Shown: one piece after another, positions 5,605 to 62,437 of the stretch
How the letters are laid out: every line of letters begins with the position of its first letter
How positions within the stretch are numbered: the stretch's first letter is position 1
Source of the DNA: Escherichia phage EJP2
Sequence record: OQ411014.1
Reading direction: 5' to 3' (one strand)
DNA length: 64,000 bases
Program-made: the position numbers and the translations under genes
The notes under the pieces: model-generated
Seen by the model: the letters and a program-made list of their open reading frames with translations, nothing else
Told to the model about the DNA's origin: nothing
The model's database searches: none

Positions 5605-5615
5605 TGTGATATAAT
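5605..5615 (+). promoter_or_regulatory. Early-type promoter, extended -10 box TGTGATATAAT
   Basis: Exact TGTGATATAAT with TTGAGA about 18 nt upstream; about 50 nt before the 5669 start. Confidence 0.6.
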
Positions 5616-5668
5616 AGAGTGGTAGGACACGGATAGTCCTCTGAGATGTAAAACATGGAGACAATATA

Positions 5669-6532
5669 ATGATAAACACTAAGCCGAAGCGTAAGAAGTA
5701 TTTGAATAACGCTGACTTACTAAGAGAGATACACATAAGTAAAATGTCGTATTGCTATCTGCTAGATCGTGCTTATAGTATGTATGACTACATAGTTTTT
5801 GATGAATCCGAAATCACTGAAGAAATCTTAGAAAAGGCTTCAGCGGCTCGAATCAAACGACTAAACAATGAAGCGATTGACAAGATTCGCGTAAAAGATG
5901 GACTATCAGCTAAGAAAGCGAAAGAACAAGCTGAAAGTTTAGGTGTAGTATTGAGTACTGTACCACAAGATGAAGTAGTGATTCGTGTAATCACCGATGA
6001 ACATATCCCTTTCGATGCTTCCAACAAGAAAGGTGAGAAGTTCCGAGTAAACTTTGAACCATTCAAACACTACATCGTTGATGATTGTGGAGAGATAGTT
6101 GAAGTTGGTCGGTCACATTGGCGTGGTGATTTAGAAAACGGTGAGTTCTCAATGGACCACGGTCGAATTACAAATGAACTCGGTAAAATGTTTATCAAAC
6201 TTGCTGAACAGATTTCACACAAGACTAACTATAGACGTTATACGTACTTGGATGAAATGATGGGCGATGCTCGTGTTCAACTAGTCAAGAATGCTCTTCT
6301 CTTCAAAGAAAGTATTCTGTACAAAAAAGTGAAACCTGCTGTGCAGTTGAATCCCTTTTCATATTATACATCGTTTGTTAACAACGCGTTTCGTTCAGTA
6401 CTGAATGCTGAAAAGAATGTACGTAACATCCGTGATGATTTGTTGGAATTGAATGGCTTTAACCCAAGTCATACTCGTCAACTAGAAATCGAAATTCAAA
6501 TGCAAGAAAGGAAAAACAATGGCACTATTTGA
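5669..6532 (+). CDS. Putative late-transcription sigma factor (gp55-like), extended form
   Basis: N-terminus KPKRKKYLNNADLLREI resembles the T4 gp55 N-terminus as recalled; sits directly upstream of the gp47/gp46-like pair as in T4; 287 aa is longer than T4 gp55. Confidence 0.4.
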   Translation: MINTKPKRKKYLNNADLLREIHISKMSYCYLLDRAYSMYDYIVFDESEITEEILEKASAARIKRLNNEAIDKIRVKDGLSAKKAKEQAESLGVVLSTVPQDEVVIRVITDEHIPFDASNKKGEKFRVNFEPFKHYIVDDCGEIVEVGRSHWRGDLENGEFSMDHGRITNELGKMFIKLAEQISHKTNYRRYTYLDEMMGDARVQLVKNALLFKESILYKKVKPAVQLNPFSYYTSFVNNAFRSVLNAEKNVRNIRDDLLELNGFNPSHTRQLEIEIQMQERKNNGTI

Positions 6533-7553
6533 TAAAGCAGTTACTTTTACAGATATTCATCTTGGTCTAAAGAACAACAGTAAAGAACACAACGAAGATT
6601 GTTTGAACTTCGTGAAGTTCATGATTGCTGAAGCGAAGAAACAAAATATACGTACTTGCATCTTTATGGGAGATTTCTTCCATAATAGAAGCAACGTAAA
6701 CATAAGTACTTTGAACTATGGTTTGGAAGTTATGAAACTTCTAAACGAGAACTTCGATAAAGTATATTTTCTTGTCGGGAACCACGATATGTACCACAAG
6801 AACAAACGTGACATTACCAGTATCAATATGGCACAGGCGTTCGAGAACATACATTTCGTGAATGAGATGGAAACTATTGATGATTGCACTTTCATTCCTT
6901 TTATGATTGATGACGAATACACAAAGTTACCATCTCTACGAAGCAAATACGTTTTTGGTCACTTAGAATTACCTGGATACCTCTTGAATAAAATGGTCGA
7001 AATGCCTAACCACGGTAAAGAGACTCAAGAGTCATTCAATGGTTGTGAATACGTCTTTAGTGGACACTTCCATAAACGACAATCTAAAATTACACCAAGC
7101 GGTACTAAGGTACTGTACACTGGAAACTGTTTTCCACATGACTTTTCTGATACATGGGATGATGCACGTGGTATTATGATTCTTGAACACGGTAAAGACC
7201 CATATTTTGTTGCTTGGGATAAAGCACCGAAGTATAGAACCTTTACTTTGTCTGAACTTCTGTCTGACCCATCATATTACGTCCAAGATGATGTAATTGC
7301 TAAAGTTCAAATTGATATTCCTGTTACTATGGATGAGATTAGTTACATTCGTGAACTATTCAGTACTATTCATAATATCAGAGAGTTCAACGTAGTAACG
7401 AACAAGAAAGCAGTGATGGATGATGTTGAGAAGATGGTGGATTCATCTGAAGGGACTGAAACAGTCGATGAGATTGTACTACGTCAAATCAGTGAAATTG
7501 ATTCACCAATATTCGACAAGAATCTACTAATGCAAATTTACACATCACTATAA
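6519..7553 (+). CDS. Mre11/SbcD-like recombination nuclease (T4 gp47-like)
   Basis: N-terminal FTDIHLG phosphoesterase motif, GDFFH, GNHD; 344 aa; followed by the Rad50-like partner. Confidence 0.8.
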   Translation: MALFDKAVTFTDIHLGLKNNSKEHNEDCLNFVKFMIAEAKKQNIRTCIFMGDFFHNRSNVNISTLNYGLEVMKLLNENFDKVYFLVGNHDMYHKNKRDITSINMAQAFENIHFVNEMETIDDCTFIPFMIDDEYTKLPSLRSKYVFGHLELPGYLLNKMVEMPNHGKETQESFNGCEYVFSGHFHKRQSKITPSGTKVLYTGNCFPHDFSDTWDDARGIMILEHGKDPYFVAWDKAPKYRTFTLSELLSDPSYYVQDDVIAKVQIDIPVTMDEISYIRELFSTIHNIREFNVVTNKKAVMDDVEKMVDSSEGTETVDEIVLRQISEIDSPIFDKNLLMQIYTSL

Positions 7554-7568
7554 TCAAGGAGAGCACGG

Positions 7569-62193: not shown

Positions 62194-62226
62194 AATGGAG
62201 AGCATAATATGTTCTCCATCTTTTTG
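62194..62226 (+). terminator. Rho-independent terminator after nrdB
   Basis: ATGGAGAGCATAATATGTTCTCCAT hairpin followed by CTTTTTG. Confidence 0.65.
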
Positions 62227-62236
62227 AGGGTATATA

Positions 62237-62407
62237 ATGAATAGTTCTGTGTTTAGCTTTCTACCAGATACTGTCTATCGATTTCATTTGGTTGACGGAA
62301 ACCAAATAACTGGTATCATCACTCAAGTGTTTGATGATGGAATCGAGGTTTCTAATCGACGAATCGTTCAAGACAAAATTGTTTTTTGGTACGAAGTTGA
62401 AGAATAA
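62237..62407 (+). CDS. Small hypothetical protein (56 aa), below the ORF-track length cut-off
   Basis: Hand translation MNSSVFSFLPDTVYRFHLVDGNQITGIITQVFDDGIEVSNRRIVQDKIVFWYEVEE; GAGGG upstream. The opposite-strand track ORF 62261-62455 lacks signals. Confidence 0.35.
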   Translation: MNSSVFSFLPDTVYRFHLVDGNQITGIITQVFDDGIEVSNRRIVQDKIVFWYEVEE

Positions 62408-62426
62408 TTGAGATAAAAGATTTTTT

Positions 62427-62437
62427 TGTGATATAAT
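62427..62437 (+). promoter_or_regulatory. Early-type promoter TGTGATATAAT
   Basis: Exact box preceded by a T-run; about 30 nt before ATG 62467. Confidence 0.55.

Follow-up and report, generated by a model that had tools for sequence, protein, structure and literature searches.

The window analysed here, a stretch of 64,000 nucleotides (nt) from Escherichia phage EJP2 (sequence record OQ411014.1), carries two sets of repeated boxes. A RaK2/CBB-like jumbo myovirus has three temporal classes of promoter, and the two sets very probably correspond to two of them; this degree of confidence covers the identity of the promoter classes only. The first set, a replication or 'middle'-type class referred to as class 2, is built around the extended -10 sequence TGTGATATAAT, and the second consists of late boxes with the core ATAAATA. 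Both classes have already been predicted for the sister phages CBB and GAP32, and the window is thus a further case and not a new one. An initial annotation of this DNA had proposed two distinct promoter classes, a distinction borne out by their location on the coding strand, their promoter distance from genes, the conservation of their positions in relatives and the fitting sets of downstream genes.

Megablast and tblastn searches place the window in the RaK2/121Q/CBB/GAP32 group of T4-related jumbo myoviruses with genomes of ~350 kb. The nearest record is Erwinia phage Hallingskeid, with about 78-83% nucleotide identity and 87% amino-acid identity for the DNA polymerase; for exact matches to window proteins, short metagenomic contigs were the only source. 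Because the gene order of the window is that of annotated relatives, the functions of the genes downstream of the boxes were assigned by synteny with these relatives. The analysis draws on motifs, geometry, placement, conservation, concerted variation and the presence of sigma genes, from which start sites, timing and the assignment of proteins to boxes are predicted.

The 11-mer TGTGATATAAT occurs in nine exact copies, all on the plus strand, compared with 0.12 expected, and none of 100 shuffles reached nine. All nine positions named in the initial annotation (5605, 10490, 28844, 39165, 39261, 44552, 49454, 55911 and 62427) were confirmed, and its two one-mismatch variants at 24889 (TCTGATATAAT) and 32964 (TGTGCTATAAT) proved to be genuine members of the class by their matrix scores and the presence of an upstream box. 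With a 38-nt weight matrix these 11 sites scored 29.6-40.3, whereas everything else on both strands remained at or below 8.5, a bimodal distribution. Two other one-mismatch matches, at 4071 and 47677 (minus strand), lack the upstream box, score below 8.5 on the same matrix and were rejected as chance occurrences.

All 11 sites possess a second conserved half, a TGAGAC-like box exactly 17 nt upstream of TATAAT with an A-rich tract before it. The alignment consensus is aAaaA(t/a)TGAGAcA-N11-TGTGATATAAT-A, a layout of A-tract, TGAGAC, N12 and TGTGATATAAT that spans 29 nt from the box to the end of the -10 element. The upstream box is spelled TGAGA[CT] at eight sites and as a one-base variant at three, and the run of bases before the -10 hexamer is TGTGA at nine sites, TCTGA at one and TGTGC at one. 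TGTGATATAAT conforms to TRTGnTATAAT, an extended -10 element in which both the TATAAT hexamer and the TG are present. The sites are located 12-93 nt upstream of genes; the earlier statement that they lie just upstream of genes is correct for 10 of the 11 boxes, the exception being 10490, which precedes a conserved RNA devoid of an open reading frame (ORF).

The CBB genome paper (Buttimer et al. 2017, PMC5259590) reported three promoter classes predicted by MEME and assigned no reader to them: RpoD-like promoters that cluster in the early region and possess an UP-like element; a divergent class, 'Promoter 1', with TGAAACG...TRTGnTATAAT before DNA-synthesis and gp55-like genes, likewise reported for GAP32; and 'Promoter 3', ATAAATA before structural genes. 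Class 2 has in common with 'Promoter 1' the 6-nt TGRRAY box, the 17 nt to TATAAT, the TRTG ahead of the -10 element and the same 29-nt span (Table S6). The downstream DNA-synthesis genes and gp55-like sigma, as well as the ATAAATA core before structural genes, are likewise those of CBB and GAP32, members of the same phage group, and a third class of canonical RpoD-like early promoters is seen elsewhere in the genomes of relatives. The window differs from CBB in its box (TGAGAC instead of TGAAACG), in the base at -13 (A instead of G) and in the near invariance of its 11-mer.

Class-2 promoters are found at syntenic positions in five other genera, represented by Hallingskeid, fENko-Kae01 (Munch-like), E9.1 (121Q-like), BF and RaK2, and each lineage has its own version. 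The box at the -35 position is TGAGAC in the window, TGGGAT in Hallingskeid and TGGGAC, mostly shifted by 1 nt, in fENko-Kae01, all three with the extended -10 element TGTGATATAAT. It is TG(G/A)GAC with TGTGCTATAAT in the 121Q-like E9.1, TG(G/A)AAC with TRTGGTATAAT in BF and CBB, and cTGAAC with AATGATATAAT in RaK2. For 48 promoters in 10 orthologous sets, identity within genomes was compared with identity between orthologs; positions -15/-14 and -12 to -7 are uninformative in this comparison, being fixed by the selection of sites. Promoters of one genome resembled each other more than they resembled their orthologs at -35 (0.84 vs 0.58), -32 (0.93 vs 0.40), -31 (0.84 vs 0.65) and -13 (0.71 vs 0.49), and position -17 behaved in the same way. 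The flanks gave the reverse pattern, with orthologs more alike than promoters of the same genome. A concerted change of box and -13 base is what co-evolution with a genome-specific reader would produce. At the promoter of the exonuclease/RNase H-like gene (32946-32974), the C at -13 is conserved in the window, Hallingskeid, fENko-Kae01 and E9.1.

This leads to the question of which protein reads the class-2 promoters. An extra factor had been proposed on the grounds that an identity of 11 bases exceeds the needs of sigma-70. That argument is not supported, as all bases except -13 correspond to known contacts or preferences of the holoenzyme: sigma-70-family holoenzymes recognize the -10 hexamer, the TG at -15/-14 and the 'TRTG' extension at -17/-16, with -13 excluded. 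The factor itself is unproven but plausible on other grounds, namely the non-TTGACA box, the concerted change of box and -13 base, and an RpoD-like sigma in relatives. Such a sigma is encoded in all relatives, with regions 2 and 3 detected by Pfam and a match to SigA/RpoD chains in the PDB at about 1e-16. Identity between lineages is 32-46%, and the putative region-4 recognition helix at the C terminus varies by lineage (STIHRRY, SLHRCY, SIHRKY, TLHYKF and TLSRRY). The helix TLSRRY belongs to BF and CBB, whose promoters have TGRAAC and G at -13, and a helix of the form I/L-HR-x-Y belongs to Hallingskeid and 121Q, with TGRGAY and A or C at -13. In the relatives the gene lies amid dense TTGAC(A/T)-N16-18 promoters, where class-2 boxes are absent except for copies of the RNA cassette described below. 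An RpoD-like sigma of the window phage itself was not linked, as the samples shown to carry the gp55-like gene and those carrying homologs of the Hallingskeid sigma do not overlap; loci with the latter homologs were used solely as examples of early regions.

A tentative reading, to which close to an even chance is given, is that the phage RpoD-like sigma recognizes the TGRRAY box through its region 4, together with the -13 base. Class 2 itself is a bipartite promoter of the sigma-70 family, made up of an A-rich UP-like tract, a non-canonical TGAGAC at the -35 position (TGRRAY across the family), a fixed gap of 12 nt and the extended -10 element TGTGATATAAT. The transcribing enzyme would be the bacterial core RNA polymerase, the -10/TG part being suited to any sigma-70-type region 2/3. 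The phage RpoD-like sigma would be made from canonical TTGACA early promoters and would then read the class-2 box, turning on genes of replication, recombination and nucleotide metabolism, the gp55-like late sigma gene and the structured RNA. The presence of the gp55-like sigma gene under a class-2 promoter gives this scheme the logic of a cascade, and the existence of three promoter classes and three sigmas suggests a one-to-one assignment. By analogy only, the cascades of SPO1 (gp28, then gp33/34) and of phiEco32 (gp36) indicate that an early phage sigma could redirect the host core polymerase; in contrast to these systems, the class-2 -10 element is identical to the host consensus, and the link between sigma and promoter is drawn here by analogy.

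Several points weigh against this assignment. In an alignment the phage sigma lacks equivalents of sigma-70 W433/W434 and H455/E458, so that its reading of TGnTATAAT is not obvious. The -10/TG part is a perfect target of host sigma-70, and host polymerase alone could be enough. Read at 18-nt spacing, (A/T)TGAGA matches TTGACA at 4-5 of 6 positions; TGAGAC at 17 nt matches at one of 6. The covariation of sigma helix and box rests on only about three independent lineages, and gene conversion among promoter copies could also give rise to concerted variation. A prophage of Citrobacter and an island of E. coli also carry promoter and RNA cassette; within the 40 kb inspected around the latter copy no sigma gene is annotated, and these bacterial copies would have to use host factors or stay silent. 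Finally, a search of the literature found no experimental start-site or promoter-to-sigma assignment for this phage group, close relatives included.

A possible but rather unlikely alternative is that class-2 sites are very strong host sigma-70 promoters, composed of an UP-like tract, an imperfect -35 element at 18 nt and an optimal extended -10 element, that require no phage factor. Their extra conservation would reflect selection for maximal strength or copying of promoters, comparable to the long consensus of T4 early promoters. The holoenzyme contacts at all 11 bases save -13, the fit of (A/T)TGAGA to TTGACA and the upkeep of the cassette in bacterial chromosomes with no sigma gene in view are all in keeping with host recognition. 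The same is true of the distant relative PA5oct, which is rifampicin-sensitive; RNA-seq data exist for this phage, and its mapped promoters are of the TTGAC/TATAATA type only. However, the same genomes hold a separate canonical TTGAC(A/T) class that is confined to the early region, and the class-2 box never drifts to TTGACA. Box and -13 base shift jointly across the promoters of a lineage, whereas the DNA-contact regions of the hosts' sigma-70 are essentially invariant in Enterobacterales. Class 2 resembles extended -10 promoters of sigma-70/sigma-A in its perfect TATAAT, the TG at -15/-14 and the T-R at -17/-16. Promoters of this kind can function even where the -35 element is poor, yet class 2 keeps a strongly conserved non-TTGACA box at that position and a -13 base that is fixed per lineage.

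Recognition of the extended -10 element by host sigma-70, combined with a phage activator or sigma appropriator on the TGRRAY box in a MotA/AsiA- or class II-like manner, is considered quite improbable. In function, the genes behind class-2 promoters do correspond to those behind T4 middle promoters: both classes follow an early one and cover replication, recombination and the late sigma. T4 middle promoters also possess a sigma-70-type, often TGn-extended -10 element; extended -10 promoters in general tolerate the loss of -35 recognition. A candidate activator would be the small helix-turn-helix (HTH)-like protein of 99 residues encoded at 24957-25256 (plus strand) behind a class-2 promoter. 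It matches phrog_639 'transcriptional regulator' at 8.6e-7 and PDB chains with a MarR-type winged helix at E = 0.07, which is below the threshold of significance, and it is a candidate DNA-binding regulator by these matches. The geometry differs from that of T4: the MotA box (a/t)(a/t)(a/t)TGCTTtA is centred at -30, 11-13 nt from the -10 element, whereas TGRRAY occupies -35 to -30 at a spacing of 17 nt and not about 12 nt, and no TGCTT is present at any of the 11 class-2 sites. No MotA or AsiA homolog was identified in the 64 kb of genome covered. RaK2/CBB-like phages furthermore carry a full RpoD-like sigma, and T4 has none. That the repeated boxes are some DNA signal other than a promoter, for instance a hotspot of recombination, a site used in packaging or replication or what is left of a mobile element, is hardly credible: the class-2 box and the RNA do behave as a mobile cassette with several RNA-matching places per phage genome and copies in bacterial chromosomes, but all 11 occupy the coding strand, have canonical -10 geometry and are as far from start codons as promoters would be, and their positions before orthologous genes are conserved while spacers and flanks diverge.

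The late class was assessed in the same window. ATAAATAAT is present in eight copies, compared with 2.0 expected. The late boxes listed in the initial annotation are real, with small corrections: three of them start one base later than given (19401, 22233 and 57227), the site placed at 22578 is a late box with the sequence TATAAATAT, which has an ATAAATA core and is not ATAAATAAT, and the minus-strand site is ATAAATAAC at 32874-32866. Copies of ATAAATAAT at 17528, 35103, 52943 and 12286 (minus strand) had been missed. The core ATAAATA occurs 21 times, exactly as often as expected by chance (21.0). Nevertheless, 19 of these 21 copies are located 10-120 nt upstream of same-strand gene starts, a zone that comprises 5.6% of strand-specific positions (P = 3.5e-22), and the core is therefore purged elsewhere and retained at promoters. 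In the 19 positioned sites the core is invariant. The base before it is not biased towards T (A3 C4 G7 T5) and an AT extension is preferred, so that the consensus is NATAAATA(aT) and not the TATAAATA of T4, of which five full copies are present and 5.3 expected. The 12 nt examined before the core at the 19 sites contained no conserved column, the -35 position itself not being tabulated. A purine is present 6 nt after the box in 17 of the 19 sites, a spacing that would fit the geometry of T4 late promoters.

The genes downstream of the late boxes are, by synteny, mostly virion and packaging genes (portal region, head, protease, scaffold, capsid, tail fiber, terminase and baseplate), along with a few unannotated small ORFs. 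The boxes are found at the same positions in Hallingskeid, and conservation of the two late promoters of head genes extends to up to seven relatives. At two places, 12260-12286 and 48419-48451, a divergent pair of boxes about 20-30 nt apart serves oppositely oriented virion genes. The link to a gp55-like protein drawn in the initial annotation is sound, as a gp55-like sigma is encoded in the window at 5669-6532; the protein yielded no match in Pfam and no sequence match in the PDB. It is the presumed reader of the ATAAATA boxes, and the late class would be of the T4 late type, cut down to NATAAATA(aT) and devoid of a -35 element. The likeness to T4, in which TATAAATA is used by gp55 with gp33 and the gp45 clamp, lies in a single A/T-rich -10 element with no -35 element before virion genes, in the encoded gp55 homolog and in a clamp-like gene annotated in the relative fENko-Kae01; the first T of TATAAATA is not conserved here, and the AT extension is preferred. 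The counterpart of this clamp-like protein in the window (gene 28907-29638) gave no match in a Pfam search. Orthologs of gp33 have been reported for this phage group (PMC7824862), whereas the authors of the CBB genome found no homolog of gp33 or gp45 (PMC5259590).

The late promoters of the head structural gene (ATG 16656) and the major capsid gene (ATG 19455) had been noted to have a further element in common, and this element is real and conserved in relatives. Exact copies of ACATACTGAAA are limited to 16614 and 19411; a search that tolerates one mismatch gives five copies where 3.5 are expected, which is no enrichment, and the significance of the element derives from the fixed offset after the late box and the conservation in relatives. 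It occupies about -2 to +9 relative to the predicted start of both promoters. Ahead of both genes CATAC shows no variation in the window, Hallingskeid, Munch/fENko-Kae01, BF and WPEC3/E9.1; RaK2 has lost it at both. The pair also has common lineage-specific flanks: in E9.1 and WPEC3, for instance, each of the two promoters carries TAAATAATATCATACT. Conservation of the TGAAA part is limited to the capsid gene, where ACTGAAAAG forms pairs with CTTTTTCAG(T), immediately before the late box, the paired arms being TTTTCAGT/ACTGAAAA. Folding predicts this hairpin for five lineages, at -5.8 to -9.4 kcal/mol and z -2.6 to -4.3, and BF has a compensatory change (TTTTCTGT/ACAGAAAA). The promoter of the head structural gene has no such hairpin (-1.1 kcal/mol, z +0.3).

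The capsid hairpin would be formed only by read-through transcripts from the scaffold gene, since transcripts from the late promoter would start inside it. The most economical reading of the sequence is that ACATACTGAAA represents the extended start-site and initially transcribed region of the two strongest late promoters, to which a read-through hairpin specific to the capsid gene would be added. The location of ACATACTGAAA at the predicted start and in the arm of the capsid hairpin makes a start-site or read-through role at least as likely as the translational or transcript-processing signal first suggested. An enhancer of translation or a site of RNA processing in the 5' untranslated region of the head-gene mRNAs, to which a low probability is given, would agree with the occurrence of ACATACTGAAA at the two most highly expressed late genes, its conservation in relatives and its location within the transcribed leader, given the predicted start. 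Yet the invariant CATAC straddles the predicted +1, and TGAAA, conserved at the capsid gene alone, has its pairing partner there in pre-promoter sequence, which would be missing from late transcripts. A further 25-30 nt separate the downstream Shine-Dalgarno region, with a conserved context of its own, from the element, and ACATACTGAAA is absent from the other 17 late promoters. In T4, genes e, soc and 49 have a late promoter inside a hairpin of read-through transcripts, which serves as a lead only. The capsid late box is similarly situated in the loop of a conserved inverted repeat that only upstream transcripts could form, but the hairpin leaves the Shine-Dalgarno sequence uncovered, and translational masking is therefore not evident. 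A separate sequence before the head structural gene, TATATC...GGAG-GATAT(C/A) at about 16634-16655 (plus strand), is able to form a small stem with the Shine-Dalgarno GGAG in the loop region and is conserved in Hallingskeid, Munch, BF and WPEC3.

The about 480 nt that follow the 10490 promoter contain no credible ORF and represent a conserved structured RNA. The stretch is 74-84% identical across five genera, a conservation equal to that of coding genes. In an alignment of 11 sequences, 91 pairs were supported (97.2% paired). Changes on both sides were observed for 33 pairs, compared with 5-9 in slid controls, with a covariation score of 0.335 vs about 0.05. The many invariant G-U pairs identify the plus strand as the RNA strand. 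Searches against Rfam 15 and for tRNAs yielded only noise-level Rfam matches and no tRNA, and inspection by eye revealed no convincing hammerhead or RNase P motif. Homology to ncRNA001 and ncRNA002 of PA5oct, which were defined by RNA-seq, was rejected, as a profile search with nhmmer gave no match.

The RNA matches 3-5 places in each RaK2-like genome; BF, CBB and a metagenomic genome each have confirmed full-length copies at two of these. Xanthomonas jumbo phages match it as well. Every copy examined upstream has a class-2 promoter of its own lineage type, except that at locus L029 (TGTCCTATAAT). Copies were also found in bacteria. In the Citrobacter amalonaticus P55 prophage (locus L035, 3420-4092), two tandem TGAAAC-N12-TRTGGTATAAT promoters precede the RNA, which is flanked by the genes of a serine integrase and a CI-like repressor. 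In E. coli LR-29-1 (locus L036, 19930-20590) it stands behind a TGGGAT-N12-TGTGATATAAT promoter in a ~10-kb island adjoining ffs, with DuOB, DUF488 and mSLOG/DUF4326 genes nearby; the island is present in two of 5,426 complete E. coli genomes. Promoter and RNA travel together as a cassette that keeps lineage-specific boxes. An unlikely extension of this observation is that class 2 is a phage-private signal, its box and -13 base co-evolving with the helix of the phage's own sigma, and that the RNA is a mobile cassette whose bacterial copies, with the E. coli island seen as one of defence type, would stay silent until a cognate jumbo phage infects, to become an infection-triggered RNA acting in defence, as a decoy or as a hitch-hiker. 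The coordinates of all features are collected in Table 1.

Table 1. Predicted class-2 and late promoters of the window with associated features; downstream genes are named by synteny.
Feature	Position	Strand	Sequence and context
Class-2 promoter	5587-5615	+	TGAGAC-N12-TGTGATATAAT; 53 nt upstream of the gp55-like late sigma gene; syntenic in Hallingskeid, E9.1 and BF
Class-2 promoter	10472-10500	+	Box TGAGAT; drives the ORF-less structured RNA; syntenic in four other genera
Class-2 promoter, variant	24871-24899	+	TCTGATATAAT; before the 99-residue HTH-like gene, then the DNA polymerase gene
Class-2 promoter	28826-28854	+	Before gene 28907-29638, whose ortholog ENKO_295 (fENko-Kae01) is annotated as gp45 clamp-like
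Class-2 promoter, variant	32946-32974	+	TGTGCTATAAT; before the exonuclease/RNase H-like gene 33007-33993
Class-2 promoter, P1 of tandem pair	39147-39175	+	Box GGAGAT; before the SSB gene
Class-2 promoter, P2 of tandem pair	39243-39271	+	Box TGAGCA; lowest matrix score (29.6); before the SSB gene 39365-40426
Class-2 promoter	44534-44562	+	Box TGTGAT; before small gene 44601-45038
Class-2 promoter	49436-49464	+	Before the DNA primase gene; true start near 49493
Class-2 promoter	55893-55921	+	Before the second exonuclease gene 55934-56647; very short leader
Class-2 promoter	62409-62437	+	Before a small membrane-protein gene
Conserved structured non-coding RNA	10501-10982	+	About 480 nt; driven by the class-2 promoter 10472-10500
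gp55-like late sigma gene	5669-6532	+	phrog_12791 E=6e-148, phrog_234 E=3e-18; synteny with annotated late sigma genes of relatives
Late box	5577-5583	-	Before virion structural gene 4815-5570; back to back with the class-2 promoter at 5587; conserved in Hallingskeid
Late box, divergent pair	12260-12266	+	Virion protein gene; pair kept in Hallingskeid
Late box, divergent pair	12280-12286	-	Baseplate hub gene; pair kept in Hallingskeid
Late box	16264-16270	+	Before small gene 16327-16557
Late promoter	16604-16624	+	ATAAATAAT-C-ACATACTGAAA; head 'virion structural protein' gene, ATG 16656 (prohead-core gene in the initial annotation)
Late box	17528-17534	+	Before the head maturation protease gene
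Late box	18196-18202	+	Before a scaffold-like gene
Late promoter	19389-19426	+	ATAAATAAT-A-ACATACTGAAA; major capsid gene, ATG 19455; in the loop of inverted repeat CTTTTTCAGTG / ACTGAAAAG
Late box	22233-22239	+	Before gene 22277-22582
Late box	22579-22585	+	TATAAATAT; before the tail fiber gene
Late box	32868-32874	-	Before minus-strand virion genes 32258-32821; conserved in Hallingskeid
Late box	32932-32938	-	Before minus-strand virion genes 32258-32821; conserved in Hallingskeid
Late box	35103-35109	+	Before the terminase large subunit gene
Late box	37797-37803	+	Before virion structural gene 37833-39125
Late box, divergent pair	48419-48425	+	Pair kept in Hallingskeid
Late box, divergent pair	48445-48451	-	Pair kept in Hallingskeid
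Late box	52943-52949	+	Before virion structural gene 52987-53958
Possible late box	56483-56489	+	Weakest case; downstream gene start uncertain
Late box	57227-57233	+	Before virion structural gene 57261-57827

The tandem class-2 promoters of the SSB gene (39147-39271) are 96 nt apart, and their arrangement is kept in Hallingskeid, fENko-Kae01, E9.1 and BF. The short leader specific to P1 holds a hairpin-like sequence, ACCAGCTAGTCTGGT. A longer primase ORF starting at 49445 overlaps the class-2 promoter and was rejected as spurious. Matches of the TTGAC(A/T) type within the window were judged to be chance occurrences, being mostly intragenic and having poor -10 hexamers. The exception is a perfect TTGACA-N17-TATAAT at 22594-22622 (plus strand), which overlaps the tail-fiber late promoter and whose -10 element ends one base before the ATG; from its sequence, this may be either a chance match or a leaderless or early start.

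A strong terminator hairpin follows the capsid gene at 20640-20728 (plus strand), GGGACTC-TTGACG-AGTCCC with a T-run and then TATAAT. It is kept in Hallingskeid and fENko-Kae01 and mimics a promoter in simple pattern scans. In the early regions of relatives a repeated cassette, AAAAGGG-TTGACT-TCGG-TCAGCCC-TTTTTG-TATTAT, places the -35 element of an early promoter inside a terminator-like hairpin (L006 7107-8430; L011 2679; L017 4783 and 5181; L019 6190). It resembles the promoter-stem-loop cassettes of T4-type phages. The terminase large subunit is encoded by an ORF of 878 amino acids at 35164-37800 (plus strand), compared with 889 in RaK2 and 872 in fENko-Kae01; in Hallingskeid, E9.1 and BF it is annotated with about 547 amino acids and a separate upstream ORF. 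These differences in length between lineages suggest a fusion, a split or an insertion.

In summary, the window provides a clean map of 11 class-2 and about 19 late promoters over 64 kb and extends the CBB/GAP32 classes across the group. The concerted, lineage-specific evolution of the box and the RNA cassette are not described in the CBB paper. The RNA, a by-product of the analysis, may be of more interest than the promoters: it is supported by covariation, is absent from Rfam and is also present with a class-2 promoter in bacterial islands. If the variation of the box does reflect a phage sigma, these jumbo phages would use a cascade of three sigmas, from host sigma-70 to the phage RpoD-like sigma to the gp55-like sigma, which would be a hybrid of the strategies of SPO1 and T4.

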